DNA from: an uncultured Candidatus Saccharibacteria bacterium
GTDB lineage: Bacteria > Patescibacteriota > Doudnabacteria > UBA920
Direction: 5' to 3'
Length of the DNA: 64,000 nucleotides
Assembly: GCA_964416765.1 (NCBI GenBank)
Contig: CAYQEU010000001.1
Span: 340,480 to 404,479, forward strand
The position numbers and the translations under genes were made by a program. Below, piece by piece: positions 6,059 through 64,000 of this stretch (its first letter is position 1; each line of letters starts with the position of its first letter). Below the pieces are notes generated by a model, which worked only from the letters and a program-made list of their open reading frames with translations, was not told the DNA's origin and made no database searches.

Positions 6059-7216
6059 ATGGAACCACTCGCCTCTCGAATCAGACCGAAAACACTGGAG
6101 GGATTCGTGGGCCAGACTCATTTGGTTGGGCCGGGCAAGCCACTTCGAATTGCCATAGAGAAAAAACAGATTTTCTCGTTTTTGCTTTGGGGTCCACCAG
6201 GGGTAGGCAAGACAACCCTAGCCAGAATTTATGCTAATGCCCTTGGCGCTGAATTTCATGAACTGTCCGCGGTGTCCGCGGGAAAAGAAGACATCAGGAA
6301 AATTGTTAGCGGGCACCAGCAAACCCTGCGACCGGTAGTCTTATTTTTGGATGAAATTCACCGCTTTAACAAAGCCCAGCAAGATTATCTGTTGCCTTTT
6401 GTGGAAAGCGGCCGGCTAATTTTGGTTGGCGCGACCACCGAAAACCCCAGCTTTGAAGTCATTCCCGCCTTGCTGTCGCGCCTGCGCGTATTTGTGCTGG
6501 AAGAGCTGAAGCCAAAAGAAATGGAGAAGATTGTTAAGCAGTCAGGATTTAAGCTAGACAAGAAAGCTTGCGAATGGCTCATCGAAATGGCAAACGGAGA
6601 CGCCCGCCAGGCCATTACCATGATTGAAAATACCGCTAACTTATATGACGGCAAAATCACCGTCGAAACCCTGACCGATACGCTGCAGTCGAAGTTCCTC
6701 AGGTACGACAAGAAAGGGGAAGAGCACTACAATACTATCAGCGCTTACATTAAAAGCATGCGCGCGAGCCAGCCTGACGCGGCGTTGTACTACCTGGGGC
6801 GCTTAATTGAATCAGGAGAAGATCCAAAATTCATCGCGCGGCGCATGGTTATTTTTGCCTCCGAGGATATTGGCATGGCGCAGCCCACCGCGCTAGTGGT
6901 TGCCAATGAAGTATTTAAAGCAGTGGAAACAATTGGGTTGCCGGAGTGCGCCATCAATCTCGCCCATGGAACCGTTTATATGTGTTCCTGCCCCAAGGAC
7001 AAGAGCGCTTACGAGGCGTACTACGCTGCTCTGGAAGATGTTCAAAAACATGGGAACTTGCCTATCCCCATGCGCGTCAGAAATGCCCCCACCAAGTTGA
7101 TGAAAGAATTGGGTTATGGCAGGGGCTATGAGAGGTATCCCAAGGAAGATTTGCTTCCCGAAAAAATTAGGGGAACAAAGTATTACAAACCCAAGAAAAA
7201 ACCCGCGAAAGATTAG
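6059..7216 (+). CDS. rarA: Replication-associated recombination protein A (AAA+ ATPase RarA/MgsA)
   Basis: LWGPPGVGKTTLA Walker A, GATTENPSFE, NGDARQA, SGEDP, NAPTKLMKELGYG blocks align along the whole length with RarA. Confidence 0.9.
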   Translation: MEPLASRIRPKTLEGFVGQTHLVGPGKPLRIAIEKKQIFSFLLWGPPGVGKTTLARIYANALGAEFHELSAVSAGKEDIRKIVSGHQQTLRPVVLFLDEIHRFNKAQQDYLLPFVESGRLILVGATTENPSFEVIPALLSRLRVFVLEELKPKEMEKIVKQSGFKLDKKACEWLIEMANGDARQAITMIENTANLYDGKITVETLTDTLQSKFLRYDKKGEEHYNTISAYIKSMRASQPDAALYYLGRLIESGEDPKFIARRMVIFASEDIGMAQPTALVVANEVFKAVETIGLPECAINLAHGTVYMCSCPKDKSAYEAYYAALEDVQKHGNLPIPMRVRNAPTKLMKELGYGRGYERYPKEDLLPEKIRGTKYYKPKKKPAKD

Positions 7217-50639: not shown

Positions 50640-53205
50640 AACAAACAAGGAAGCACAATCTGTCCGTTTACCCAACCACGTTAAGCCAGAACATTACTGG
50701 CTTTCTTTGGTGCCTGATTTCAACAAGTTTACTTTTTCAGGTGAAGAAATCATTACCTTAGAGTTAACCAAGCCGGAATCAACTATTCAGCTGCACGCCA
50801 AAGAGTTAAAAATTTCAGAGGCTTTTATAACAGATGGAGATTCACAGTGGTCCGCCAGAGTAACTCTTGACCAGGAAAATGAACAAGCTTCTTTTGAGTT
50901 TGAAAGCCAGCTAAAAAAAGGAACTTATAACCTCAACTTAAAATTTTCTGGCGCGCTCACTGACAACATGCGCGGCTTTTACCGCAGCCAATTCCAGGTT
51001 AAGGGCAAAATGGGATACATGGCCGTGACCCAGTTTGAACCAACGGATGCGAGACGAGCTTTCCCATGTTTTGATGAACCCGCTCAAAAGGCTACCTTCA
51101 CCGTTGAACTTACCGTACCGCCGGGAATGGAAGCGATTTCTAATACCGTAGTCACGAACAAAACCAGAACAAAAAACGGTTGGCAAAAAATTCAGTTTGC
51201 GCCGACCCCGAAAATGTCGACATATCTACTGGCTTTCATTATTGGAAAGTTTGAATTCATTGAAGACTTAACCGAGGATGGGGTGACCGTGAGGGTTTAC
51301 GTTACGCCCGGCAAAAAGTCCCAGGCCAAGTTCGCCCTTGAAGCGGGCAAGCAGATCCTCACATTTTATAACCGGTACTTTAAAATAAAATACCCTCTGC
51401 CGACCATGGACATGATCGCGGTCCCTGATTTTGCCGCCGGCGCCATGGAAAATTGGGGAGCCGTAACCTACCGCGAAACGGCGATTCTGGTGGACCCCAA
51501 AAATTCATCTACCCTAAGCAAACAATGGGTCGCTCTAGTCATCGCCCATGAATTGGCCCACCAATGGTTCGGGAACCTTGTTACCATGGAATGGTGGACC
51601 CATCTTTGGCTGAATGAGGGGTTTGCTTCCTATATTTCTTACCTGGCCGTCGACGACGCGTTCCCGGAGTGGAATATGTGGAGCCAGTTCATGAACGCCG
51701 AGTTGGGGCCTGCGTTGGAATTAGATAGCTTAAAGAATACCCATCCAATTCAGGTTGAAGTGCACCACCCCAATGAAATAAATGAAATTTTTGATGAAGT
51801 CAGCTATGCCAAAGGTGCCAGTGTCTTGCGCATGCTCGCATCGTATTTGGGACCTGTAAAGTTCCGCGACGGCTTACGGCACTACCTAAAGACGTATCAA
51901 TACTCCAATGCCCGAACCGAGGACTTATGGCGTTCTTTGGAAATAGTTTCGCGGAAGCCAGTGCGCAAAGTTATGCAAAACTGGACCGCTGAACCGGGAT
52001 ACCCTCTCGTAACGGTGTCAGAATCGGGTGCCAGGCTGAAACTATCCCAGAAGCGTTTCTACGGCGACCATAAAGAAAACAAAAAGCCAAACCGAACCGC
52101 GTGGTCGATTCCAGTTAGTGTTGGGGACAATAAAGTTAAGAAGCAGGTGTTATTCGACCGCAAAAGCTCCGCTTTAAGTAAGCCATCGGGCAGCTATACC
52201 AAGATTAATGTCGGTGAAACCGCCGTATTCCGCACAATGTACAGCGCGGGGCTGCTAAACCGCATGCTGCCCGCCATACGGGAACAAAAGATGCCCACAC
52301 CGGACCGCCTAGGAATAATCCGCGACAGCCTCGCTTTGGCCCGGGGCGGACAAATGCCCACCGATAAAGTGTTGGACATTCTTTCCAATTATTCTAACGA
52401 GACCAAGTACACAGTTTGGGTCGAAATGGGGATCACGCTGGGGATGGCAAACCGACTGTTTCGTAATGAAAAGTTTAATCCGCAACTGCGCAAATTCATC
52501 TGCAGCGTGTACGCACCGATGGCCGAAAGTATTGGGTGGGAACCCAAACCCAAAGAAAGCCACAGCCAGGGACTGCTGCGCGGTTTCATCCTCCAGCGCG
52601 CCGGTCAGTATGGGCATAAACCGACTGTTGAACGCGCCCAAAGATTATTCACCGACTATGTTACTAAAAAGACCGTAATACCGGCCGATCTCCGCAGTGT
52701 CGTGTATAACACGGTAGCTGAGCACGGAACGGAAAAAGATTTCAACCAGATCATGTCACTTTATCGCAAAGAGACACTGCAGGAAGAAAAAAACCGATTG
52801 GCTCGTGCCTTAGCCCTTTTCCCAAACGAAAAGTTGCTCAAGCGCTTCCTAAACTTTGCCTTATCCAAAGACGTAAGGCCCCAGGACGCGCCGCTCTTAA
52901 TCATTTCCGCCTGGACTAATCGCGCCGCCAAACAGCATGTTTGGAAATTTATTACCGCCAATTGGGCCAAAATCGTAAAACGATATGGAGAAGGCGGGCA
53001 TCTTTTGGTTAGGTTTATTGATCCGGCATCGAACTTTACCACCGAAAAGGAAGCCAAGATGGTAGCGGACTTTTTCCGCAAGCATCCCGCCCCGGGAGGG
53101 GAGAGGACCGTTCGCCAAACAGTCGAAGAAATCCGCATCCAGGCGGCCTGGGCCAACCGGGACCGGCAAAAAGTCCAAAAATTCCTGGGGAAACTGAGGG
53201 TTTAG
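50632..53205 (+). CDS. pepN: Aminopeptidase N (M1 family zinc metallopeptidase)
   Basis: GAMEN exopeptidase motif and HELAHQWFGNLVTMEWW(x)LWLNEGFA zinc-binding HExxH-(x18)-E. Confidence 0.92.
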   Translation: MPKTNKEAQSVRLPNHVKPEHYWLSLVPDFNKFTFSGEEIITLELTKPESTIQLHAKELKISEAFITDGDSQWSARVTLDQENEQASFEFESQLKKGTYNLNLKFSGALTDNMRGFYRSQFQVKGKMGYMAVTQFEPTDARRAFPCFDEPAQKATFTVELTVPPGMEAISNTVVTNKTRTKNGWQKIQFAPTPKMSTYLLAFIIGKFEFIEDLTEDGVTVRVYVTPGKKSQAKFALEAGKQILTFYNRYFKIKYPLPTMDMIAVPDFAAGAMENWGAVTYRETAILVDPKNSSTLSKQWVALVIAHELAHQWFGNLVTMEWWTHLWLNEGFASYISYLAVDDAFPEWNMWSQFMNAELGPALELDSLKNTHPIQVEVHHPNEINEIFDEVSYAKGASVLRMLASYLGPVKFRDGLRHYLKTYQYSNARTEDLWRSLEIVSRKPVRKVMQNWTAEPGYPLVTVSESGARLKLSQKRFYGDHKENKKPNRTAWSIPVSVGDNKVKKQVLFDRKSSALSKPSGSYTKINVGETAVFRTMYSAGLLNRMLPAIREQKMPTPDRLGIIRDSLALARGGQMPTDKVLDILSNYSNETKYTVWVEMGITLGMANRLFRNEKFNPQLRKFICSVYAPMAESIGWEPKPKESHSQGLLRGFILQRAGQYGHKPTVERAQRLFTDYVTKKTVIPADLRSVVYNTVAEHGTEKDFNQIMSLYRKETLQEEKNRLARALALFPNEKLLKRFLNFALSKDVRPQDAPLLIISAWTNRAAKQHVWKFITANWAKIVKRYGEGGHLLVRFIDPASNFTTEKEAKMVADFFRKHPAPGGERTVRQTVEEIRIQAAWANRDRQKVQKFLGKLRV

Positions 53206-53210
53206 TCTCC

Positions 53211-53239
53211 TTGGCAAAAATGCCAAAAGCCCTTATAAT
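53211..53239 (+). promoter_or_regulatory. Promoter TTGGCA-17-TATAAT upstream of secD
   Basis: Hexamers at 53211-53216 and 53234-53239. Confidence 0.6.
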
Positions 53240-53272
53240 TTCATAGTATATTAACTTAATCCATAGGAATTC

Positions 53273-54775
53273 ATGAGACCACTTTATAGGAACCTGATCT
53301 CCCTAGTTTTCATACTTCTTTTGGCTGCCGGAGCGGCTTGGATAGTCTGGCCCGGCGGTAGCCGCATTAACCTCAGCAAGAATGACGGTCCTCTCCACCA
53401 GACCTTCACCACTCACTTAGGCTTAGACCTCCAGGGCGGGTCCTATTTGGTATACCAGGCTGACTTTAAGGATATTCCTAAGGAACAGCAACGGGACGCT
53501 TTAAACGCGGCGCGCGACACCGTAGAACGCCGGGTGAATGCTTTTGGCGTTTCTGAACCCGTAGTACAGATCCAGGGCCAAAACAAATTGGTAGTAGAAC
53601 TCCCCGGCATCAAAAACATTGATGACGCGATTAACCAGATTGGCCAAACCCCATTTGTGGAATTCCGCCTTGAAGACCCGTCAGCCGCGCAAAACCTAAC
53701 CCCTGATGCCAACGGCCAAATCTCGGTCGATCCTGATTCTATTTACAAGCCCACCGGTCTTTCCGGCAAGCACTTGAAGCGCGCAACCGCTGACTTCCAA
53801 TCTTCCGGCAGCGGTCGCAGCCTGACCAACCAACCAATCGTACGCTTGGAATTCAACGATGAAGGGAAAAAGCTGTTCTCCGACATCACCACTCAGAACG
53901 TTAACAAAAAATTGGCTATGTTTCTTGATGGCCAAGTCATTTCCGACCCGGTAATCCAGCAGCCTATTACTGATGGCGTGGCTATCATTTCCGGGAACTT
54001 TAGCGTGCAGGACGCTCAAGGTTTAGCCACACGGCTCAATTCCGGTGCCTTGCCAGTCCCAATCAAACTGGTTTCCCAACAGAACGTTGGAGCGACATTA
54101 GGTCAGGACTCCATTCATAAGTCCATCATCGCCGGTATTATCGGCTTGCTTTTGATCGCATTGTTTATGATTATTTACTACCGCCTTCCTGGCCTCATGG
54201 CTGTGCTGGCCCTTGCCATTTATGCTTTGCTGTCCTTCGCCATCTTTAAGATTGGTATTTCTATCTTGGCGGTAATCCTGGTCGGCATATTCTTCTTCAT
54301 TGGTTTAACTGTTTCGGGATGGTTCGGCCTGCTTGCCCTGGTAAGCTACCTCTTGTTGATTTTGCTTCGCGGCCTGTCCCCGGTAACCTTAACCTTGGCA
54401 GGTATCGCCGGTTTCATCCTTTCCATTGGTATGGCGGTAGACGCAAACATCCTTATTTTCGAACGCTTTAAAGAAGAAGTCCGCGCCGGAAAGGCCGTGG
54501 GCAAAGCCCTTGAAGATGGGTTTGACCGAGCCTGGAACTCAATCCGCGACTCAAACGTTTCTAGCTTAATTACTGTGGCCATCCTGTATTTCTTCGGCAC
54601 TCCCGCCATCAAAGGATTCGCCATTACCCTTGGTATCGGTATTTTGATCTCAATGTTCACCGCCATTACAATCTCCCGCACATTCCTGCGGCTGCTTGTC
54701 ACGGGTTCATGGCTCTCGCGCCATAACTGGCTGTTCGGGGCGAGTAAGAAGGAAGTAACAGAAAAGGGGATATAA
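53273..54775 (+). CDS. secD: Protein translocase subunit SecD
   Basis: N-terminal TM, large periplasmic domain, C-terminal six-TM RND-like bundle; followed by secF. Confidence 0.9.
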   Translation: MRPLYRNLISLVFILLLAAGAAWIVWPGGSRINLSKNDGPLHQTFTTHLGLDLQGGSYLVYQADFKDIPKEQQRDALNAARDTVERRVNAFGVSEPVVQIQGQNKLVVELPGIKNIDDAINQIGQTPFVEFRLEDPSAAQNLTPDANGQISVDPDSIYKPTGLSGKHLKRATADFQSSGSGRSLTNQPIVRLEFNDEGKKLFSDITTQNVNKKLAMFLDGQVISDPVIQQPITDGVAIISGNFSVQDAQGLATRLNSGALPVPIKLVSQQNVGATLGQDSIHKSIIAGIIGLLLIALFMIIYYRLPGLMAVLALAIYALLSFAIFKIGISILAVILVGIFFFIGLTVSGWFGLLALVSYLLLILLRGLSPVTLTLAGIAGFILSIGMAVDANILIFERFKEEVRAGKAVGKALEDGFDRAWNSIRDSNVSSLITVAILYFFGTPAIKGFAITLGIGILISMFTAITISRTFLRLLVTGSWLSRHNWLFGASKKEVTEKGI

Positions 54776-54779
54776 AACA

Positions 54780-55670
54780 ATGAAACTGATTCAATACTAC
54801 AAATACTTATTCGCTCTTTCCGGCGTCATCCTTATCCTGGGAATTATTTCCCTGGCCGTGTATGGCCTGAAGCTTGGCATCGACTTTAAGGGCGGAACTA
54901 TCGCCCAACTGCAGTTTGAACAAGCCGTTGACCTGGGGAAAGTCAAAGATGTCGTTGCCTCTCAGGGGGTCAAAGATGTCACCGTACAGAATAGCGGCAC
55001 TAACGGAGTTATTATCCGCACCGAAGCCATTGAAAAAGACCAGCACGATAAGGTTAATGAAGCCCTAAAAACCCAGATCGGCAACTTCCAGGAAACCGAA
55101 TATGACTCTATTGGGCCGGTCATTGGCCAGGAGCTCAAGCAAAAAGCTCTATACCAGCTGATTTTGGTCTCTATTGGTATTATTTTCTACATTGCCTATG
55201 CTTTCCGCCGGGTTGCTCGTCCAATTACCCCTTGGCAGTTTGGTATTGCCGCGGTTATCGCTTTGCTCCATGACTTACTCATCGTTCTTGGGATCTTTTC
55301 GTTCTTGGGACATTACCACGGCATAGAAATTGATAGCTTGTTTGTTACCGCCATGCTTACCGTGCTTGGCTTCTCGGTTCACGATACTATTGTTGTTTTT
55401 GACCGTATCCGCGAAAACCTCAAGATCTACGCGGGGCAGAGCATTGACTTCGTGGTTAACCACAGCATTTCGCAGACTTTAGTTCGTTCCCTTAACACCA
55501 GCCTCACCGTACTGTTCGTTTTGTTGGCTCTGTTATTGTTTGGCGGCGTAACTATAAGGAATTTTGTTCTCGCGCTGTTTGTCGGTGTAATTACCGGAAC
55601 ATATTCTTCCATCTTTGTGGCCAGCCCGATTCTTTTGCTGTGGCAAAGACGACGCCAAAAGAAATCTTAA
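54780..55670 (+). CDS. secF: Protein translocase subunit SecF
   Basis: Six-TM SecF architecture with conserved GIDFKGG region. Confidence 0.9.
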   Translation: MKLIQYYKYLFALSGVILILGIISLAVYGLKLGIDFKGGTIAQLQFEQAVDLGKVKDVVASQGVKDVTVQNSGTNGVIIRTEAIEKDQHDKVNEALKTQIGNFQETEYDSIGPVIGQELKQKALYQLILVSIGIIFYIAYAFRRVARPITPWQFGIAAVIALLHDLLIVLGIFSFLGHYHGIEIDSLFVTAMLTVLGFSVHDTIVVFDRIRENLKIYAGQSIDFVVNHSISQTLVRSLNTSLTVLFVLLALLLFGGVTIRNFVLALFVGVITGTYSSIFVASPILLLWQRRRQKKS

Positions 55671-55724
55671 GGCAAACATAGCACCACATTTAATTTAGCC
55701 CGTCAAACTATAATTCTGGCACAG

Positions 55725-55754
55725 AAACCTCCCTTGTTTAAGGGGGGTTTTCTT
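55725..55754 (+). terminator. Terminator (CCTCCCTT-GTTT-AAGGGGGG then TTTTCTTAATT)
   Basis: 8-bp stem with one G-U pair plus T-run after secF. Confidence 0.75.
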
Positions 55755-55772
55755 AATTAAAACATAAATCTA

Positions 55773-55801
55773 TTGACAGAGATATGGTTTTATGATATAA
55801 T
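55773..55801 (+). promoter_or_regulatory. Perfect consensus promoter TTGACA(55773-55778)-17-TATAAT(55796-55801)
   Basis: Read directly in the sequence; precedes the three-gene module 55851-60216. Confidence 0.7.
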
Positions 55802-55850
55802 TAGGCCAACGTTTTGAAGACGTATCTATTCCTAAAGTAATCCCACCGTT

Positions 55851-56936
55851 ATGGGGATCTTAGACACAATCATCACAACCAACCAACAAGAGTCCTTACA
55901 GCAATTTGAATTGGGCTTAATTGTCAGCAAAATTATTGAACCGTTACGCGAACGCGAGCAAGCGATTTTAAAACAGCGTTACGGACTTCATGGACACAAG
56001 ATCGAAACCCTCAAAACAGTAGGGGAAGAACAGGGTTTAACACGCGAACGTGTTCGTCAGATTGAAAAAGAACTTTTAAAGAACTTAAAGCGCGGTGTCC
56101 AGGAGCTGGAAGCTTTTGTAACTGCCCGTGACCTATTACTTACCACCATTTCTGAACACGGCGGTATTATGGCTGAGCACCGTTTAATGAAGCACCTTGG
56201 CGCTGAAGACGAAACCGACGTAAACGCCTTGCGTTTCCTGTTAAATTTAATAGTAGAACTTGAACTCCACAACGAAGACAAGCATATCCGCCATTCCTGG
56301 TCTAAACTTGGCTTTGACAAGAAGTTTTTGACCGAATTTATAGTGGAAACCAAGAAAATCCTGTCTGCCCACGGCAAGCCGGTCAGCGAAAAGGAATTTT
56401 TGGATAAGTTTATGGAATCCGAATTCTACAAGCAGAACAAGGAAGCTTTGCCTGAGCACGTCATGATGAACTACATCCACACGGCGACCGGCGTCCATAA
56501 GAACTCCTTTGGCGAGTTTGGGCTCCAGGGCTGGAGCGAAATCAAGCCCAAGGACGTTGGTGACAAGGCTTATTTGGTCATGAAGCACCACGGCAAACCC
56601 GAACATTACTCTGTTATTACCGATTTGATCAACAAGCACGCTTTGGACAAGCGCACCGCTTACAAGGAAACCGTGCACAACAAGCTTATTAAGGACAGCC
56701 GTTTCGTTTTGGTGGGCCGCGGCATTTACGCTTTAACCGAATGGGGTTACAAGCCTGGTGTGGTGTCTGATATACTGACAGAGGTGATGAAAGAAGCCCA
56801 GCACCCCATGAGCCGTGATGAAATTATTGATGAAGTCATGAAGCGCCGCATGGTAAAGAAAAATACCATCCTCGTCGGCCTTTCTAACCGAAAATTATTT
56901 AAAAAAGTAGGCAAGAACTTATACGATTTGGCCTAA
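55851..56936 (+). CDS. Sigma-70 region-4-like HTH domain protein with large C-terminal domain of unknown function
   Basis: N-terminal about 90 aa resemble sigma-70 region 4 (EREQAILKQRYGL..KTVGEEQGLTRERVRQIEKELLKNL); no region 2, so not a complete sigma factor. Confidence 0.6.
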   Translation: MGILDTIITTNQQESLQQFELGLIVSKIIEPLREREQAILKQRYGLHGHKIETLKTVGEEQGLTRERVRQIEKELLKNLKRGVQELEAFVTARDLLLTTISEHGGIMAEHRLMKHLGAEDETDVNALRFLLNLIVELELHNEDKHIRHSWSKLGFDKKFLTEFIVETKKILSAHGKPVSEKEFLDKFMESEFYKQNKEALPEHVMMNYIHTATGVHKNSFGEFGLQGWSEIKPKDVGDKAYLVMKHHGKPEHYSVITDLINKHALDKRTAYKETVHNKLIKDSRFVLVGRGIYALTEWGYKPGVVSDILTEVMKEAQHPMSRDEIIDEVMKRRMVKKNTILVGLSNRKLFKKVGKNLYDLA

Positions 56937-56965
56937 TCTAAGGCAAGGCTGAAACTAAAACAAAA

Positions 56966-58309
56966 ATGAGCTTACTACCAGAACTCTTTCCTCAACTTGG
57001 CCCAGCCTTGGTAGGTTTTTGGGTGTTTTTCAAAGATGGTGGCTTCTTGATATTTATCATTTTAGCCGTCTTTTTGCTGTACCAGTACTACATGATCACC
57101 ATCATTGGGCACTGGAAGTCCAACTTGAAATGGGTTTACATCAACGTCAAAATGCCCAGGGAAAACCTAACTTCACTTTTGGCGGTTGAGCAGATCTACT
57201 CCCAGCTCCACGCCGCCCACCGCAGTATGACCATGGCGGAAAAGTATATTGAAGGGCGCGTCCAGCTGTGGTACTCATTCGAAATTATTTCCTTCGGCGG
57301 GAAAATCAATTATATAGTGCGCGTGCCCGAAAAATTCCGTGATACCGCCGAAGCCGCTTTTTACGCTGTCTATCCCGAAGCTGAAATTACCCAGGTCAAC
57401 GATTACCTGGAGAATTTTGAGTTTCACCCGGGACATAGCGACTATGAAATCTTTGGCACTGAGCTTAAAATGCGTACCTCCGATGTTTTGCCCATCAAAA
57501 CTTACCGGGACTTGGAGCACCCAACGGCGGAGGTAAAAATCGTTGACCCGACCGCGCCGCTAATTGAAGCGTTAACGAAAATTGACCCGGATGAGTTTTT
57601 GGGTGTGCAGATTATTGCCCAGCCATTGGCTGACAATGAATGGCAGGATAAAGCCAAGAATAAAGCCAAAGAACTGCTCGGCGAACATGTGGACCACCAC
57701 GAAAGCATATTGACCAAGGTGTTTAACTTTTTTGCAATATTTGCCCCGCATAATGTATTCAAGGCATTCTTCGGTATTGGCGGCGGAGGCCATGATGACC
57801 ATGGCGGCCATAAGGACGCCGGCGCGCCGAAAAACAACTTATTGCAAATGACCGAAGTGGAAAAAGACCAGGTTAATGCCATCCAGACCAAGGCCAGCAA
57901 ACCCGGTTACCTTTGCAAAATCCGGTACATGTATCTTTCTCCCAAGGAGAAATTTGACCGGTCCAAGCGCGTTGCTTTGATCGGGGCGTTCCGTACTTTA
58001 AGTGACGCCAACAAGAATGGTCTTAAGCCCGATTCGAAACTGGTGTCTACCCGTGTTAAGTACCGTATTTCGAAAACATTGGAAGGTCCATATATCCAGC
58101 ATCTTTCGGATTTCAGAAAACACCACTTCTTTGAGGGCTGGAAAAGCCGTAGCTACTATATTGGCATGCCTCAATTCATCTTAAACACTGAAGAACTAGC
58201 CACTTTATTCCATTTGCCTTTGACCGATATTCCACAGGCCGCTGATGTCGCCAAAATTGAAAGCAAGAAGTCCCAGGCGCCGGCGAACCTTCCTACCGGA
58301 ACATTCTAA
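56966..58309 (+). CDS. Membrane-anchored hypothetical protein (two N-terminal TM helices, Gly/His-rich internal segment)
   Basis: TM helices at the N-terminus; GGGGHDDHGGHKD low-complexity stretch; immediately upstream of the VirD4-like ATPase. Confidence 0.55.
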   Translation: MSLLPELFPQLGPALVGFWVFFKDGGFLIFIILAVFLLYQYYMITIIGHWKSNLKWVYINVKMPRENLTSLLAVEQIYSQLHAAHRSMTMAEKYIEGRVQLWYSFEIISFGGKINYIVRVPEKFRDTAEAAFYAVYPEAEITQVNDYLENFEFHPGHSDYEIFGTELKMRTSDVLPIKTYRDLEHPTAEVKIVDPTAPLIEALTKIDPDEFLGVQIIAQPLADNEWQDKAKNKAKELLGEHVDHHESILTKVFNFFAIFAPHNVFKAFFGIGGGGHDDHGGHKDAGAPKNNLLQMTEVEKDQVNAIQTKASKPGYLCKIRYMYLSPKEKFDRSKRVALIGAFRTLSDANKNGLKPDSKLVSTRVKYRISKTLEGPYIQHLSDFRKHHFFEGWKSRSYYIGMPQFILNTEELATLFHLPLTDIPQAADVAKIESKKSQAPANLPTGTF

Positions 58310-58329
58310 CTACCTGTATACTGAAATAA

Positions 58330-60216
58330 ATGCCAGAAAACCAAGACGAAATTAATTTTTTTGCCAAGACTAACTACCGGAATCGGGAAGTGCCTTTTGG
58401 CATAAAAGCCGACGACCGCCGCCGCCACATGTACATTATCGGAAAGACGGGTATGGGCAAAACGACCATGATGGAAAACATGGTTATTCAGGATATCCGG
58501 AATGGCCATGGCGTTTGTTTTATCGACCCGCACGGGGACTCCGTAGCCAAAATCCTAGATTATATCCCAAGCAGTCGTGTTAACGACGTCGTCTATTTCA
58601 ACCCGGCGGACATTGAACACCCTATCGCGTTTAATATTCTGGAAACCGTGGACAGTAAGTATAAACATTTGGTTGCTTCCGGTCTTATGGGCGTGTTCAC
58701 GAAAATCTGGGCTAACCTCTGGTCTGCCCGAATGGAATACATTTTGAACAACACCATCTTGGCGCTTCTGGACAGCCCGGGTAACACCATGATGGGCATC
58801 GCGCGCATGTATATCGACAAAAAGTACCGCAAGCGCATTGTCGATAATATCAAAGACCCTATGGTTAAAGCCTTTTGGGTTGATGAGTTCGCGCAGTACA
58901 GCGAAAAGTACCGTACCGAAGCTATTGCGCCGATTCAAAACAAAGTTGGGCAGTTCTTGTCTTCCGGAATTATCCGCAACATTGTAGGCCAGCCGCGCTC
59001 CACTATAGATTTGCGTTCCATTATGGACAACCAAAAAATTCTTTTGATGGACTTGTCCAAAGGCAAAGTGGGAGAAGATAATTCGGCTTTGCTGGGCGCT
59101 ATGGTTATTACCAAACTGCAACTGGCCGCTTTGTCACGCGTGGATATTCCGGAACATGACCGAAAAGACTTTTTCCTGTACGTGGATGAGTTCCAAAACT
59201 TTGTCACTGAAAGCTTCGCCACTATTTTGAGCGAGGCGCGCAAATACCGCTTAAATCTTACCATTGGCCACCAATATATAGGTCAGCTTGCTCCCGACCG
59301 CAACAACACTAAAGTGCGGGACGCAGTGTTCGGCAACGTCGGGACTATGGTTTGCTTTCGGGTCGGTGCGGCTGACGCGGAATTTTTGGAAACTGAATTT
59401 GACCCAACCTTCACTCCTAATGACATAGTAAACCTGCCCAAATACAATATTATTTTGCGGCTCATGATTAATGGCGTTGCTTCCGACCCGTTTTCCGCCG
59501 TTACCATGCCAGTTAGGGAAGATTGGGCTACGGGTAACGGTGAAAAAGTTATTAAAGTATCCCGGGAGCGATACGCCAACCCGGTTATTGAGGTTGAAGA
59601 AAAGATCATGCGCTGGATGGGAGCCGAAACCCACCAGGAAATCGGCTTAATAGTCGGACGTGATGAAGATGAAAATCCGGCGGAACAGATTGCGGAGGCT
59701 GTGCAGGAAAAGACAGCAGAAACAGTAAAGAAAGTCTTGGCGGAAGCAATGGGGGAACAATCACCCGTACCTGCAACGGAAGCTGTAAATACATCCACAG
59801 AGACTCCCCAAACCATACCAGAACCCCCGGCCGAAATCGAGCACGTCCCCGAACCTGACGTTGTAAAAGAGCCTGAGATAGTGGTTGAGGCTCCTAAACA
59901 CGAGATAAAGCCACAGACCCAGCAGCGCCACAGGCCGGAACTTCAAAATAGAAGCGGCAATCAAAGCAAGGGCCAAAAATTCTCTCAACAGCGAAAAAAG
60001 AACAAGCCCAACAAAAACAAGCAAAACGCCCGCGACGTTAACCCCATATGGAAAACCGTGGAATCTTTAAATGATGAGCGCGCGGCCGCTGACCTGCAAA
60101 AGGCCCAGCGAGTCCACGAACCCGCCGCCGTACCGGAAAGTTCCCACCCCGACAACAACAGCCAAAGCGACTCCGGCGCAAAGATAATCCGCCCCGGAAT
60201 AGTTCACAAATTCTAA
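58330..60216 (+). CDS. VirD4/TraG/TraD-like (type IV coupling protein family) P-loop ATPase lacking the N-terminal TM, with Gln/Lys/Asn-rich C-terminal tail
   Basis: Walker A IIGKTGMGKTT, Walker B FLYVDEFQNF, TraG-family motif LTIGHQYIGQL and FGNVGTMVCFRVG; last about 120 aa low complexity. Confidence 0.7.
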   Translation: MPENQDEINFFAKTNYRNREVPFGIKADDRRRHMYIIGKTGMGKTTMMENMVIQDIRNGHGVCFIDPHGDSVAKILDYIPSSRVNDVVYFNPADIEHPIAFNILETVDSKYKHLVASGLMGVFTKIWANLWSARMEYILNNTILALLDSPGNTMMGIARMYIDKKYRKRIVDNIKDPMVKAFWVDEFAQYSEKYRTEAIAPIQNKVGQFLSSGIIRNIVGQPRSTIDLRSIMDNQKILLMDLSKGKVGEDNSALLGAMVITKLQLAALSRVDIPEHDRKDFFLYVDEFQNFVTESFATILSEARKYRLNLTIGHQYIGQLAPDRNNTKVRDAVFGNVGTMVCFRVGAADAEFLETEFDPTFTPNDIVNLPKYNIILRLMINGVASDPFSAVTMPVREDWATGNGEKVIKVSRERYANPVIEVEEKIMRWMGAETHQEIGLIVGRDEDENPAEQIAEAVQEKTAETVKKVLAEAMGEQSPVPATEAVNTSTETPQTIPEPPAEIEHVPEPDVVKEPEIVVEAPKHEIKPQTQQRHRPELQNRSGNQSKGQKFSQQRKKNKPNKNKQNARDVNPIWKTVESLNDERAAADLQKAQRVHEPAAVPESSHPDNNSQSDSGAKIIRPGIVHKF

Positions 60217-60217
60217 C

Positions 60218-60248
60218 AAAAACCCCCTCAGTTGAGGGGGTTTAATTT
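60218..60248. terminator. Bidirectional terminator (AAACCCCCTC-AGTT-GAGGGGGTTT)
   Basis: Perfect 10-bp stem between the ATPase gene (+) and trxA (-). Confidence 0.8.
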
Positions 60249-60255
60249 ATTGAGC

Positions 60256-60576
60256 TTAGATGTGGCGCTTAATTTCCGCTTCGATTGTTGATTTAGGAGC
60301 GGCACCTACTAATTCTCCCACGATCTGGCCGTTTTTGAAGAATTTAAGGGTTGGGATGCTCATCACGCCATAATGAGTAGACAGGCTTCCTTGCTCATCG
60401 ACGTTAACCTTACCGACTTTGAGCTTACCTTCATACTCCTTGGCCAATTCATCAACAGTAGGGCTAAGTATTTTGCAGGGACCGCACCATTCTGCCCAAA
60501 AGTCTATTAAAACCGGCATATCTGACTTAAGTACTTCGTTTTCGAAATTTTGTTCTGTAATTTCTAATTCTGCCAT
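60256..60576 (-). CDS. trxA: Thioredoxin
   Basis: WCGPC active site, 106 aa. Confidence 0.93.
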   Translation of the reverse strand: MAELEITEQNFENEVLKSDMPVLIDFWAEWCGPCKILSPTVDELAKEYEGKLKVGKVNVDEQGSLSTHYGVMSIPTLKFFKNGQIVGELVGAAPKSTIEAEIKRHI

Positions 60577-60625
60577 TTGTGTATTTAATTAGTTTGCTTA
60601 TGAATTCTATAGCCGGTGGCAGGCT

Positions 60626-60654
60626 TTGTCAATAAACCTAAAATTCCTTATAAT
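60626..60654 (+). promoter_or_regulatory. Promoter TTGTCA-17-TATAAT upstream of the D,D-carboxypeptidase gene
   Basis: Hexamers at 60626-60631 and 60649-60654. Confidence 0.6.
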
Positions 60655-60664
60655 TTCAAGAGTT

Positions 60665-61621
60665 ATGGGAAAGACCGAAATTAAATGGAAACCAATCACT
60701 GCCGGAGCAGGGCTGACCTTGCTTGTTTTTTTGTACCCGCTGTTAGCAGTTGCCCCGCTATCTCTACCTACGGGTGACCCCAGAGTGGAAGGAGCCGCCA
60801 CTATCAGCCCCTTGGGAATGCCAAATAATAAGGGTTCAGACAACATTGCAAAGCCCAAGCTCATAGGATCAATTGATTTAACAACCGTGCAGGCCAGAAG
60901 TTTTTTGGTGTTCGATTCAGGCACAGGGGAAACCTTAGCGGAAAAGAATCCCAAACAACCGGTGGCTATTGCCAGCCTTACTAAGTTGATGACCGGGCTT
61001 GTGGCCTACAACCATATCTCATCTTTCAGGCAAACCATTATGGTCCAATCCGCTGATCAGTTTAACGTTGATCCGGTACTGGGCCTGAAGACGGGAGATG
61101 AGGTTTCCGTAAGCGACTTATTTTATTCCATGCTAATCGGCTCAGCGAACGACGCGGCACTCACCCTAGCGAACCACACTGAGCAAACTACCGGCAAAAA
61201 TTTTGTCGATTTGATGAACGACCAGGCCAAAAGCTTAGGCATGGAGGATACTCATTTCAGTAACCCTTTAGGTTTCGACAGTGAAGCCAACTTTTCCACG
61301 GCTGCGGACTTAGCCCAATTGATAAATAAAGTTCGGGAGTACCAGGCCTTTAACTTATCCGGCAAAGAACAGTCATACGCGTTCACTTCCAGCTCGGGAT
61401 CCCGCTATGGCGTAAAAGCAACTAACAAGCTTACCGCCTCCTACCCCGATTTATTCGCTGTTAAGACCGGCTTTACCAACCAGGCTCAGGGAGCAATGGT
61501 GACGGAAGTTAAAGATAAGCAGGTTGCTTTCACCATAATAATATTGGATTCACCTAACCGGGAAAATGACACTCTTAACCTCCGCTCCCAAATCCTTAAA
61601 AATTACTCTTGGGGGCCATAA
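60665..61621 (+). CDS. D-alanyl-D-alanine carboxypeptidase (S11, PBP5/DacA-like)
   Basis: SxxK (ASLTK), SxN (SAND) and KTG motifs in the correct order and spacing; signal/TM N-terminus. Confidence 0.85.
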   Translation: MGKTEIKWKPITAGAGLTLLVFLYPLLAVAPLSLPTGDPRVEGAATISPLGMPNNKGSDNIAKPKLIGSIDLTTVQARSFLVFDSGTGETLAEKNPKQPVAIASLTKLMTGLVAYNHISSFRQTIMVQSADQFNVDPVLGLKTGDEVSVSDLFYSMLIGSANDAALTLANHTEQTTGKNFVDLMNDQAKSLGMEDTHFSNPLGFDSEANFSTAADLAQLINKVREYQAFNLSGKEQSYAFTSSSGSRYGVKATNKLTASYPDLFAVKTGFTNQAQGAMVTEVKDKQVAFTIIILDSPNRENDTLNLRSQILKNYSWGP

Positions 61622-61641
61622 TATGGTATAATTAAGGCCAT

Positions 61642-62682
61642 ATGGACACCGACGCACTAACTAAAATATTCAGTCTGACCTCCGCTGCTTTTTTGGTTAC
61701 TGTCTTGGCCACACCGTTAGTCAGCAATTTTCTTTACCGGTTTCGGCTTACCAAAAACATCCGCAATGACGGCAGTACCCCAATATTTAGCGAGCTCCAT
61801 GCTGGCAAACAAGGGACACCGACCATGGGCGGTATTTTAATTTGGGGAACTGTTTTAGTCCTGGCTGGTATTTTCTGGTTCTTGGACAGGATCTTAGGCC
61901 AGCATTCTTTCCACATCTTAAATTTCTTGACCCGACGCGACACGCTATTGCCCCTGGGCGCCATGGTGGGCGCGGCATGCGTGGGAATGGCGGATGATTT
62001 CCTGGATATTCAGCAATCCGGACATAAAGGCCGGGGATTCCGTTTCCGTTTTAAAGTTATTATTTATGCTTTGGTTGCATTGATTGGCGCGTTTTGGTTC
62101 TACTCTAAGTTAGGTTTTGACAGCGTCAGTGTTCCTTTCTTTGGCATGTATCACCTCGGAGTCTGGTTCATCCCGTTTTTTGTTTTGATTGTGGTCGGAA
62201 CATCGTTTTCCGTTAACCAAACTGACGGTTTGGACGGTCTGGCCGGTGGAGTGCTTTCCATGTCCTTTCTTGCCTACGCAATAATTGCATTCATGCAGGG
62301 TAATACCAACCTGGCCGCATTGCTGGGGGTAGCTACCGGTTCTCTACTGGCTTTCTTATGGTTTAACGTTTACCCGGCTCGCTTTTTTATGGGAGATACT
62401 GGATCCATGGGATTAGGCATGCTTTTAGCTATAGTGGCATTCCTTACTGGAGAGGTGTTCTTATTGCCTATTATCGGAATAATTTTTGTATTAGAAGCAC
62501 TAAGCTTTTTTCTCCAAATGTTTTGGCGCGCCGCTTTCGGCAAAAAATTATTCCTGTCGTCGCCCTTACACCATCACTTTGAAGCCGCTGGCTGGCCTGA
62601 AACCAAAGTCACCATGCGTTTTTGGATCTTGGCGGCTATAAGCTCTATATTGGGCGTTATTATTTATTTGATCGCACACTAA
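61642..62682 (+). CDS. mraY: Phospho-N-acetylmuramoyl-pentapeptide transferase
   Basis: Ten-TM PNPT family with MraY-type cytoplasmic loop KQGTPTMGG and DD..D motifs; TGGTATAAT extended -10 only 9 nt upstream of the ATG. Confidence 0.85.
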   Translation: MDTDALTKIFSLTSAAFLVTVLATPLVSNFLYRFRLTKNIRNDGSTPIFSELHAGKQGTPTMGGILIWGTVLVLAGIFWFLDRILGQHSFHILNFLTRRDTLLPLGAMVGAACVGMADDFLDIQQSGHKGRGFRFRFKVIIYALVALIGAFWFYSKLGFDSVSVPFFGMYHLGVWFIPFFVLIVVGTSFSVNQTDGLDGLAGGVLSMSFLAYAIIAFMQGNTNLAALLGVATGSLLAFLWFNVYPARFFMGDTGSMGLGMLLAIVAFLTGEVFLLPIIGIIFVLEALSFFLQMFWRAAFGKKLFLSSPLHHHFEAAGWPETKVTMRFWILAAISSILGVIIYLIAH

Positions 62683-64000
62683 TGTATTCAGTCTTAATAA
62701 AAAAAGCCCGCCTGATAGACGGCACCGGGGCTCCCGAAAAAATTTGCGACATCGCCATAGAGGGCGAAGAAATCGTCGCGGTTAACCCTGAAATCACCAC
62801 CGGCGCCACACAAACCATAAACGCGGAAGGGAAAATTGTCGCCCCGGGATTTGTTGATGCCCAAAACCATAGCGATAGCTATTGGCAGCTGTTTGATAAC
62901 CCGGAACTTGAGAGCATGGTGGCCCAGGGCTACACAACTATCTTGGTGGGAAATTGCGGAGGCAGTTTGGCACCCCTGCTTTCACCTCCTGCTTTATTGG
63001 CTTTACAGAAATGGCACACAACCGATGGCTGGAACGTGGACTGGCAAAGCTTTGGTGAATTCCGCAACACAATGACAGCGCGCCGATTCGGTTGCAACGT
63101 TGCCTCGCTGGTTGGTTACTCCACGCTTCGGCGGGGCATAGTGGGAGATTCGCCAAGACCACTGACCCCCGACGAATTAGAAATTATGAGGATTGCCCTC
63201 GAACAGGCCATTGAACAGGGCGGATTCGGCCTATCTATCGGCTTAGCTTACAGCCACGAAATGCAAACGTCGGAATTGGAGCTATACCAAATTGCACAGG
63301 TAGTAAAAAAATACGACGCTCTGCTTTCGGTTCACTTGAGGAATGAAAGCGATCGGGTGGTGGAAAGCGTGCGCGAAGTAGTAGACCTGGCCCGCATTTC
63401 CGGCCTCAATATGAAGATTTCGCACTTGAAAGTACGCAACCAGGCTAACTGGGATAAGGCGGCTGAAGTAATTGAACAACTGGAGCTTGCTTGGCATCAG
63501 GGAGTAAATATCCATTATGACGTTTATCCATACACCACCATTTGGCAAATGCTTTATAGCTATTTGCCGGGTTGGGCTATTCAGGGCGGCCGCACTCACT
63601 TGCTGCGTGAATTAAGCAATCCCGTCCAAAGAAACAAGATTCTTACCGAACTTAATAATAGCCAGGCAAAACTTCGAGACCTCATCGTCACTTCAACTTC
63701 GGGGCGGTTAAGTGTGATAGGAAAGACTATCGCCAGTATTGCCAAGGATATGGAAATTTCCAGCGAGGCCGCAGTCCTTAAGCTAATCGAAAACGGCGGT
63801 AGTGAAGTATTGGTGTTCGATGAAGCTCTCAGCCAGGAAAACGTTACGGAGTTTTTGCATCACCCGCTGGCCATGGTGGCTTCGGACGGTGGCGGCTTTG
63901 ATACTAAAACCAATACCCGACTGGTCCACCCCCGATGCTTTGGTACCGCGCCTCGTTTTCTGAACCAGGTCATAACAAGCAAGACCATGGAACTCCCGGA
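62682..64000 (+). CDS. N-acyl-D-amino-acid deacylase / D-aminoacylase family amidohydrolase (3' partial, runs off the window)
   Basis: Hand-translated open frame from ATG 62682 to the window end with no stop; PGFVDAQNHSD metal-binding motif of the amidohydrolase superfamily; not in the ORF track because it has no stop codon. Confidence 0.75.
   Translation, partial: MYSVLIKKARLIDGTGAPEKICDIAIEGEEIVAVNPEITTGATQTINAEGKIVAPGFVDAQNHSDSYWQLFDNPELESMVAQGYTTILVGNCGGSLAPLLSPPALLALQKWHTTDGWNVDWQSFGEFRNTMTARRFGCNVASLVGYSTLRRGIVGDSPRPLTPDELEIMRIALEQAIEQGGFGLSIGLAYSHEMQTSELELYQIAQVVKKYDALLSVHLRNESDRVVESVREVVDLARISGLNMKISHLKVRNQANWDKAAEVIEQLELAWHQGVNIHYDVYPYTTIWQMLYSYLPGWAIQGGRTHLLRELSNPVQRNKILTELNNSQAKLRDLIVTSTSGRLSVIGKTIASIAKDMEISSEAAVLKLIENGGSEVLVFDEALSQENVTEFLHHPLAMVASDGGGFDTKTNTRLVHPRCFGTAPRFLNQVITSKTMELP

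Follow-up and report, generated by a model that had tools for sequence, protein, structure and literature searches.

Coupling proteins and the operon examined here

Type IV coupling proteins (T4CPs) such as TraD, TrwB and PcfC are hexameric ATPases with a disordered tail that ends in a short conserved peptide, and they work with a DNA-binding partner (the pairs TraD-TraM, TrwB-TrwA and PcfC-PcfF). Here we describe a three-gene operon that may follow the same logic, by analogy only, in an uncultured bacterium titled "Candidatus Saccharibacteria" and placed by GTDB in the Doudnabacteria (UBA920) of the phylum Patescibacteria. The operon lies in a stretch of 64,000 nucleotides of contig CAYQEU010000001.1 (assembly GCA_964416765.1, positions 340,480 to 404,479 of the forward strand), hereafter the window, to which all coordinates refer unless another record is named. 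In contrast to the pairs above, the partner protein in the window consists of a sigma region 4 and winged-helix domains instead of a ribbon-helix-helix fold, and the module comes with no relaxase and no oriT.

Homologs of coupling proteins have already been noted in this phylum. A survey of 3,035 Patescibacteria genomes found 5,713 VirD4-type (T4CP) homologs in 2,918 of them (96%), only 148 of which are near virB4, and reported that most Patescibacteria encode a type IV secretion system (T4SS), a monoderm system classed as MPF-FATA (Quinonero-Coronel et al. 2025, PMC12102498). The same study describes TrsD, a separate protein remotely like the N terminus of VirB4, and states that exaptation of t4cp "cannot be ruled out" (PMC12102498). 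In Southlakia epibionticum ML1, for which transposon sequencing (Tn-seq) data are available (Wang et al. 2023, PMC10633639), the genes SEML1_0294 and SEML1_0293 represent the same module by domain content and gene order, on which their orthology to the window genes rests: a gene for a protein with Sigma70_r4 and HARE-HTH domains is followed by one for a TrwB_AAD_bind protein. The Southlakia locus differs in that genes 2 and 3 of the module form one gene of 921 aa and that secDF is not adjacent. Neither study describes the operon, its split into two genes, the VirB4-like N-terminal domain or the sigma-4 partner, and our literature searches found no description of this operon; these features, together with the links to plasmids and phages, are what is new here.

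We give a probability of roughly one half to the reading that this operon is a chromosomally fixed, or "domesticated", T4CP module with a new DNA-binding partner, and that it is a core feature of Patescibacteria. A first-pass annotation of the window had picked out a three-gene unit immediately after secDF, and all the features that it reported were found where it had placed them. The open reading frames (ORFs), separated by gaps of 29 nt (gene 1/gene 2) and 20 nt (gene 2/gene 3), are as follows.

55851..56936, + strand: gene 1, 361 aa, predicted DNA-binding protein with sigma region 4 and a winged-helix array
56966..58309, + strand: gene 2, 447 aa, membrane-anchored protein annotated as DUF8128 (PF26449), with a predicted cytoplasmic domain like the N-terminal domain of VirB4
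58330..60216, + strand: gene 3, 628 aa, soluble VirD4/TrwB-type (T4CP) P-loop ATPase

Relationship of genes 2 and 3 to fused coupling proteins

The closest known systems include the T4CPs of monoderm-type T4SSs, in particular proteins of ~800-900 aa from an Embleya plasmid and the phages G, SPO1 and JL, whose nucleotide-binding domain is homologous over its whole length. They have the same DUF8128-like N-domain, ending in E-L-A-x-L-x-H-(F/L)-P, and the gene of a DNA-binding partner is adjacent. The phage family model phrog_5156 (824 positions) matches the two window genes in tandem, gene 2 at 49-358 (E 2e-12) and gene 3 at 395-806 (E 1e-61). In addition, the gene 2 profile matches residues 30-318 of gp156 of Bacillus phage G (825 aa; probability 97%, E 2e-11), including the terminal motif ALNVQEMSQFIHLP, and the gene 3 profile matches residues 418-838 of SPO1 gp27.4 (906 aa). 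For the Embleya plasmid T4CP (812 aa, NZ_CP108778), hhalign aligned residues 412-785 with the gene 3 profile (probability 100%, E 1.5e-40, 33% identity), while residues 78-400 are colinear with gene 2 (E 1e-3) through LLSVPELAALAHLP...VPPARIP, including the E-L-A-x-L-x-H-L-P motif. At the level of sequence, these matches show genes 2 and 3 to be two halves of a protein that forms a single chain in Bacillus phages and an actinomycete conjugative plasmid. The earlier suggestion of a split translocation-type device, with an anchorless motor and a separate membrane protein, is thereby borne out by the tandem phrog_5156 match and the single-chain homologs. Going by the domain positions tabulated in a published study, the two halves are fused in Saccharibacteria too, since TrwB_AAD_bind occupies residues 402-719 of Southlakia SEML1_0293 (PMC10633639).

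The genomic neighborhoods of the fused relatives place the family functionally. In the Embleya plasmid, the gene order PrgI (VirB3-like), XF1762, VirB4-like ATPase, fused protein, Replic_Relax and NlpC/P60 is that of a monoderm conjugation cluster, with the fused protein in the place of the coupling protein. Replic_Relax adjoins the related T4CPs of SPO1, JL and Embleya, and VirB6-like and VirB4-like genes adjoin that of phage G. From these neighborhoods it follows that the family is a T4CP subfamily with a DUF8128 N-domain of ~400 aa, usually adjoining a DNA-processing partner. The window module departs from the fused proteins in several respects: the protein is split over two genes; the partner is a sigma-4/winged-helix protein, theirs Replic_Relax; no VirB3, VirB4, VirB6 or cell-wall hydrolase gene lies near the module; and the locus is part of the vertically inherited chromosomal core and not of a mobile element. 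Moreover, the fused phage T4CPs have no N-terminal anchor, unlike gene 2.

Some further observations concern these relatives. Bacillus phage G carries a minimal T4SS-like set (L084, 798-6362) made up of the TrbL/VirB6-like gp153, the VirB4-like gp155 and the fused T4CP-like gp156. SPO1 (L083, 2774-8284) and JL (L085, 1823-7314) have a plasmid-like cluster of a ParM/Alp7A-type actin (gp27.9 and StbA, respectively), small ORFs, the fused DUF8128-T4CP (gp27.4 and gp150) and Replic_Relax (gp27.3 and gp149), nearly all of which are labeled hypothetical or "MsbA-like" in the records. A tblastn search of plasmids found the family mostly in Streptomyces, Bacillus, Staphylococcus, haloarchaea and Sulfolobus. 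The closest plasmid relative is a stand-alone ATPase of 395 aa in the alphaproteobacterium Sulfitobacter mediterraneus (L086, 6938-8125; 39% identity, E 8e-97), with transposase genes directly downstream, a recombinase gene upstream and no DUF8128 or sigma-4 neighbor, which suggests a horizontally acquired orphan. Apparent natural fusions of genes 2 and 3 in two loci of the candidate phyla radiation (CPR) were rejected as artifacts of 100-base masked N runs; these false ORFs (L026, ~6700-6850; L050, ~6600-6750) measure 856 and 1016 aa by ORF extension, or 862 and 1023 codons from stop to stop.

The ATPase

The expectation that the 628-aa protein would be a T4CP-like ATPase with Walker A and B motifs was borne out by profile searches. 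Both T4CP models exceed their cut-offs on gene 3 (TrwB_AAD_bind 43.6 bits against 20.5, T4SS-DNA_transf 24.2 against 20.1), and DUF87 (35.8 against 23.2) scores below TrwB_AAD_bind. The sole solved relatives by sequence are TrwB and DotL, TrwB being the best relative in the PDB.

58441..58464, + strand: Walker A GKTGMGKT, residues 38-45, aligned to the TrwB P-loop
59170..59190, + strand: Walker B FFLYVDE, residues 281-287, aligned to TrwB LFIDE
59650..60213, + strand: low-complexity C-terminal tail, residues 441-628, rich in E, P, A, K, V and Q

The stretches aligned to TrwB are similarly spaced in both proteins (176 versus 154 residues), and the Pfam match spans the region between the Walker motifs, the place that an inserted all-alpha domain occupies in T4CPs. 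In an alignment of 30 homologs, 81-93% identical over the ATPase domain, G38-K44 of Walker A are invariant and T45 nearly so; F281, L283, V285, D286 and E287 of Walker B are likewise invariant, with Y284 nearly so. Walker A begins almost at the N terminus, and a hydropathy scan of gene 3 found no hydrophobic segment, in agreement with the first-pass observation that this ATPase has no N-terminal transmembrane anchor in the same polypeptide.

The tail, previously described as a low-complexity region rich in Gln, Lys and Asn, proved to be of somewhat broader composition, with an acidic part followed by a basic Q/K/N/R part and then by NPIW and a terminal h-x-P-G-x-x-h-x-F (IIRPGIVHKF). A strict C-terminal PG-x(3-6)-F is present in 20 of 64 ATPase orthologs, and near variants occur in several more, across distant lineages; a second class of orthologs terminates in LRxALxEsL. 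In a distant ortholog (L050), the disordered tail contains a CxxC...CxxC zinc-ribbon-like insert, CDNCGKDVKLNFKPRTDKPIYCRDC.

The membrane-anchored half

Gene 2 had no match in our local copy of Pfam; PF26449 (DUF8128) is the family given by precomputed annotation for the identical protein and for most of the homologs listed. Its parts are listed below.

57005..57112, + strand: hydrophobic membrane-anchor region, residues 14-49 by Kyte-Doolittle scan (AlphaFold2 helix, residues 11-52)
57131..58231, + strand: predicted alpha/beta domain, residues ~56-422, folded like the N-terminal domain of VirB4/TrwK, ending in the conserved motif ILNTEELATLFHLP
57773..57832, + strand: Gly/His-rich stretch, residues 270-289, a variable disordered linker (pLDDT <50) deleted in many homologs

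Two N-terminal transmembrane helices had been proposed for this protein. The hydrophobic anchor region is there, but the number two is uncertain, since in this region a rather short hydrophobic stretch comes before a single transmembrane helix of full length. Because Lys/Arg residues follow the anchor, the large domain is predicted, by the positive-inside rule, to be cytoplasmic. The Gly/His-rich stretch was likewise located, though as a low-confidence, variable linker that many homologs lack. Directly before it lies a pair of hydrophobic helices (residues 247-272, 57704-57781), and the fused phage proteins, which have no N-terminal anchor, have a hydrophobic segment at a similar position in the N-domain (gp156 182-207, L084; gp150 216-235, L085); the pair may be a second membrane-contact element.

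According to the structure model, gene 2 is more than an anchor and carries a fold like that of the VirB4 N-terminal domain. The resemblance is structural only: a search of PDB sequences with the gene 2 profile found nothing, and kinship with the N-terminal part of the phage G VirB4-like protein gp155 was rejected, as the two have no sequence similarity. The overall layout of genes 2 and 3 is like that of VirB4, in which such an N-domain is followed by an ATPase of the FtsK/HerA superfamily, and TrsD and VirB4 of the Patescibacteria T4SS provide a parallel split arrangement in the same phylum (PMC12102498). The difference from VirB4 lies in the ATPase half, which scores as a T4CP and has no AAA_10 or CagE_TrbE_VirB match, with P-loop_TraG (14.3 bits against 25.8) and TIGR00929 VirB4_CagE (12.5 against 643) below their cut-offs.

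The sigma-4/winged-helix partner

The N terminus of the 361-aa protein had been likened to sigma-70 region 4, and this likeness is confirmed by a Sigma70_r4 match (residues 32-80, 37.7 bits against a cut-off of 24.1). The remainder, then described as a large uncharacterized domain, is now resolved as four winged-helix-like domains, one of which matches HARE-HTH (residues 239-298, 53.3 bits against 25.9).

55911..56105, + strand: sigma region 4, residues ~21-85, with the recognition helix LTRERVRQIEK at residues 63-73
56109..56915, + strand: four tandem winged-helix-like domains, residues ~87-152, 157-225, 236-295 and 305-355, the third being the HARE-HTH match

Residues 10-82 align without gaps to region 4 of RpoS together with the linker before region 4.1, and the -35 recognition helix is identical to that of RpoS. 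Judged from this alignment, gene 1 keeps the residues that read the -35 element. It does not, however, qualify as a sigma factor, since it lacks regions 2 and 3: Sigma70_r4 is the sole sigma domain found, the remainder being winged-helix, and full-length sigma models match by their last 60-85 positions only, far under their cut-offs. Without regions 1.2, 2 and 3, the protein cannot melt promoters or act as a sigma factor. The idea that it is the missing part of a split sigma, supplying region 4, was also discarded, as Southlakia RpoD has regions 1.2, 2, 3 and 4 (scored ES/ES/ES by Tn-seq; PMC10633639). Kinship with Replic_Relax, the partner of the fused T4CPs, was likewise rejected, there being no similarity (hhalign E 0.46).

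One winged-helix domain of gene 1 belongs to the HARE-HTH family, like the N-terminal domain of the delta subunit of RNA polymerase (RNAP), and gene 1 adds three more. Its score with the delta model TIGR04567 is 29.3 bits, below the cut-off of 42, and unlike delta, it has its HARE-HTH domain in an internal position and no acidic tail. A Kyte-Doolittle scan found no hydrophobic segment in gene 1. Its length is near-fixed, with identities of 57-87% among 46 aligned homologs and 31-83% over 68 locus orthologs, and its N-terminal MGILDxI is invariant among homologs, yet disordered in the structure model. The Southlakia ortholog SEML1_0294 (349 aa) lies directly upstream of SEML1_0293 on the same strand and has Sigma70_r4 at 27-72 and HARE-HTH at 225-283, with ECOD assignments of one tri-helical and three winged domains (PMC10633639).

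Conservation and synteny in Patescibacteria

To assess how widely the operon occurs, one genome per species was scanned with the gene 2 profile, which yielded 80 loci from Doudna-, Komeili-, Buchanan-, Uhr-, Yanofsky-, Wildermuth- and Terrybacteria, Paceibacterota and Minisyncoccales. In at least 56 of the 67 species-level loci with sufficient flanks, genes 1, 2 and 3 are codirectional and keep their order, a lower bound because the trios were detected by tblastn. A check of whether the three genes stay together in relatives had been proposed at the outset, and they do so across many classes; the operon is phylum-wide and vertically inherited. The median gaps over related loci are 49 nt between genes 1 and 2 and 20 nt between genes 2 and 3, and in most of 62 related loci, TTGACA-17-TATAxT lies 35-60 nt upstream of the gene 1 ortholog.

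Upstream, secF is found no more than 1.2 kb from gene 1 in 42 of 51 loci from deeply divergent CPR classes; in Southlakia it is not adjacent. This adjacency may reflect inherited gene order or a real association with Sec. Clustering of all neighboring ORFs left gene 1 and SecDF as the only conserved neighbors; the others are housekeeping genes (MnmA, PGK, EF-P, RuBisCO form III, DHH phosphoesterase), and the division and cell-wall genes downstream of the module are neighbors in particular lineages only. Measured against the window proteins, median identities are highest for the ATPase (62%), followed by SecD (50%), SecF (46%), gene 1 (36%) and gene 2 (31%), the ATPase thus surpassing SecDF in conservation. 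As a side observation, many of the TPA_asm records among the loci (L003-L082) titled "uncultured Candidatus Saccharibacteria" or "uncultured Gammaproteobacteria" have the typical synteny of non-Saccharibacteria CPR, and such titles seem unreliable as taxonomy.

Promoter, terminators and context of the locus

The operon has its own transcription signals, and secDF, encoded upstream, is separated from it by a hairpin in the 180-nt spacer between secF and gene 1, which also contains the promoter.

53273..55670, + strand: secD-secF, conserved upstream neighbors of the module (from the ORF list and the Pfam annotation of the relative L001)
55729..55747, + strand: terminator-like hairpin 3' of secF (7 pairs, 4 G-C) followed by a T-run, tail TTTTCTTAAT
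55773..55801, + strand: operon promoter TTGACA-17-TATAAT with a TG extension, score 12/12
60220..60243, both strands: bidirectional intrinsic terminator (10 pairs, 6 G-C) common to the operon and a convergent thioredoxin gene

The perfect promoter and the terminator had both been pointed out in the first-pass annotation. The former is the only 12/12 match within 54000-64000, a region whose promoter-like sites (16, versus 12.7 +/- 3.7 by chance) are not in excess overall; the latter also holds, except that it is not the operon's alone. An Rfam scan of 53000-62000 gave a sole match, Leu_leader at 60216-60317 (-) over the terminator hairpin, which at 29 bits against a gathering threshold of 50 was taken as chance. 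Nearby, at 60604-60654, two back-to-back promoter-like sites (11/12 each) lie between the thioredoxin gene (-) and a D-Ala-D-Ala carboxypeptidase gene (+). Across the window (1-64000), TTGACA is depleted about three-fold, with 10 occurrences versus 32.4 +/- 5.7 in dinucleotide-preserving shuffles, none of which fell below 10; promoter-like sites account for at least two of the ten, at 55773 and 60627. The depletion is consistent with selection against spurious -35 elements and could matter if the sigma-4 protein reads that motif.

The base composition of the locus has no anomaly, and the large ORFs tested in the window are housekeeping genes, as had been supposed (CysRS, ThrRS, DnaE, DEAD-box helicase, SecA, Mur ligase, FtsW, MgsA). 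The claim that no other T4SS components accompany the ATPase stands for the window and its relatives: no VirB4, VirB6 or relaxase turned up among the ten large ORFs scanned in the window, smaller ORFs lying outside the scan, and no T4SS genes or relaxase were found within +/-6 kb of the ~80 related loci. It does not stand phylum-wide, as most Patescibacteria encode a T4SS elsewhere (PMC12102498).

Possible functions of the module

If the operon is a domesticated T4CP module, proteins 2 and 3 would assemble as a membrane-tethered, hexameric, NTP-driven motor, and protein 1 would be its double-strand-DNA-binding partner in place of relaxase or accessory proteins of the Replic_Relax or TraM/TrwA type. 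Protein 1 would bind TTGACA-like DNA, possibly including the consensus -35 element of its own operon, and present the nucleoprotein to the motor, docking perhaps via the conserved C-terminal peptide of the ATPase. The motor would hold or pump the substrate at the membrane, and its most plausible destination would be the monoderm-type T4SS encoded elsewhere.

The linkage to T4SS or relaxase genes that would mark a coupling protein was found neither in the ten large ORFs scanned in the window nor within +/-6 kb of the related loci. Several observations weigh against this model. With one hydrophobic anchor per subunit, the motor is unlikely to form a channel alone, and gene 1 is sometimes missing at this position, for example in two Uhrbacteria loci (L049, L058). 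Across the phylum, T4CP homologs occur in 2,918 of 3,035 genomes and VirB4 in only 2,417, and there are only 109 relaxases (PMC12102498); because relaxases are so rare, canonical conjugative DNA export is unlikely. The Southlakia Tn-seq data are also awkward. There, T4SS genes are essential, but the fused ortholog SEML1_0293 is non-essential (NE/NE/NE), though its normalized reads drop over passages from 5817 to 2939 and 1372, whereas the gene 1 ortholog SEML1_0294 is essential (ES/ES/ES; 24 insertions in the input, 1 at T0). This essentiality is not accounted for if protein 1 is a simple adaptor. Both genes belong to families marked as core and enriched in Patescibacteria (PMC10633639). Southlakia has a second T4CP-like paralog, SEML1_0142 (1019 aa, P-loop at residues 381-800), which scored essential (PMC10633639, Table S1), and therefore the statement of a non-essential Southlakia t4cp (PMC12102498) covers one of two paralogs. 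Finally, the model leaves unexplained the extreme conservation of the ATPase and the adjacency of secDF in most loci. The Tn-seq pattern, the wider spread of T4CP homologs than of VirB4, the rarity of relaxases, the conservation of the ATPase and the secDF adjacency keep two other explanations alive.

The first of these, which we regard as possible though on balance doubtful, is that the module has been exapted as a T4SS-independent, transcription-linked device. Protein 1 would then be an essential RNAP-associated factor whose sigma-4 domain binds the beta-flap and/or -35 elements and whose HARE-HTH domain resembles that of delta, and the membrane-tethered motor would tether promoter/RNAP complexes next to Sec, or strip and recycle them. 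This would account for an essential gene 1 beside a dispensable motor in Southlakia, and it fits the similarity to RpoS, which reaches the linker before region 4.1 and includes an identical recognition helix, the MGILDxI N terminus that is invariant though disordered in the model, and the HARE-HTH fold common to gene 1 and delta. SEML1_0294 is, moreover, the sole HARE-HTH protein listed for Southlakia, in a table with only three mentions of Sigma70_r4 (PF04545). The greater spread of T4CP homologs than of VirB4, the presence of secDF directly upstream in 42 of 51 loci and the unusually strong conservation of the ATPase point the same way. However, the delta model stays below its cut-off (29.3 versus 42 bits), Southlakia RpoD is complete from region 1.2 to 4, so its holoenzyme misses no sigma-4, and all placeable relatives outside the phylum sit in conjugation-like or MOB-like contexts; secDF is not adjacent in Southlakia, and its adjacency elsewhere could be inherited gene order. 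The more specific proposal, in which the sigma-4/winged-helix protein is an essential, phylum-specific factor that binds RNAP at the flap and/or -35 elements and so couples promoters or transcribing RNAP to a coupling-type motor tethered to the membrane beside secDF, is a long shot. If true, ultra-small cells would have a previously unknown way to link transcription with the membrane, or to clear promoter complexes by means of a motor, built from a recycled conjugation ATPase.

The second explanation, which we think unlikely, is that protein 1 does no more than (auto)regulate transcription of the operon, as a sigma-4 mimic sitting on its consensus -35 element, and that the motor is an ordinary T4SS coupling protein whose substrates are proteins; gene 1 would then seem essential because its loss de-represses the motor to a toxic level. 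An essential first gene followed by a dispensable second one does resemble regulator/toxic-product pairs, the recognition helix does not differ from the one in primary-like sigma factors, and the operon promoter is a perfect consensus whose TTGACA is kept at the equivalent position in most orthologous loci. Yet TTGACA-17-TATAAT is the housekeeping consensus, and its conservation needs no special binder. A protein of 361 aa with four extra winged-helix domains, near-fixed length and high identity goes far beyond what a repressor needs, and gene 1 belongs to a family flagged as core and Patescibacteria-enriched.

A chromosome pump of the FtsK/SpoIIIE or HerA type, for segregation, dimer resolution or repair, had been put forward alongside the translocation device, with the winged-helix protein acting like the FtsK gamma domain. 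This reading is already largely refuted, and we consider it very improbable. The modular analogy (anchor, motor and winged-helix DNA reader), the DUF87/HerA score of 35.8 bits on gene 3, the cell-wall and division genes downstream in this lineage and a motor that is dispensable with a fitness cost, as for FtsK-type motors, speak for it. But FtsK_SpoIIIE has no match on gene 3 at E < 0.1, the T4CP score exceeds that of DUF87/HerA, and the HerA models of PADLOC match only the P-loop region; no NurA-like or HerA partner genes occur among the neighbors of related loci, and the downstream division genes are lineage-specific. The refuting condition named in the first-pass annotation, a better score as FtsK/SpoIIIE or HerA with ordinary neighbors and no joint conservation of the three genes, therefore fails. 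Replacement of FtsK was rejected on the lack of a model match together with the canonical, four-domain and essential FtsK of Southlakia (SEML1_0096; PMC10633639). A remnant of a mobile element or an anti-phage defense system related, for example, to MADS or MZA is scarcely credible: relatives do occur on plasmids and phages, but the PADLOC hits, mad8 for the ATPase (E 3e-17) and MzaA for the sigma-4 portion of gene 1, cover generic domains, in the latter case only region 4, and the locus has housekeeping flanks with no integrase, transposase or other defense genes nearby, no compositional anomaly, vertical and phylum-wide synteny and very high sequence conservation; membership in a defense system was rejected.

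Implications

The ultra-small Patescibacteria account for much of the diversity of bacteria, and next to nothing is known about their cell biology. The operon described here is near-universal in the phylum and derives from conjugation machinery, yet it no longer resides in a mobile element. Three hypothetical proteins become a defined machine in which genes 2 and 3 would provide one split protein with a VirB4-like N-domain and gene 1 is associated. Its partner protein reuses the promoter-reading module of a primary sigma factor and is essential in the only species of the phylum open to genetic manipulation. The combination of a VirB4-type N-domain, as predicted by the structure model, with a VirD4-type motor in one machine bears on the kinship of the two ATPase families. 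In summary, the module looks like conjugation machinery turned into a housekeeping device.

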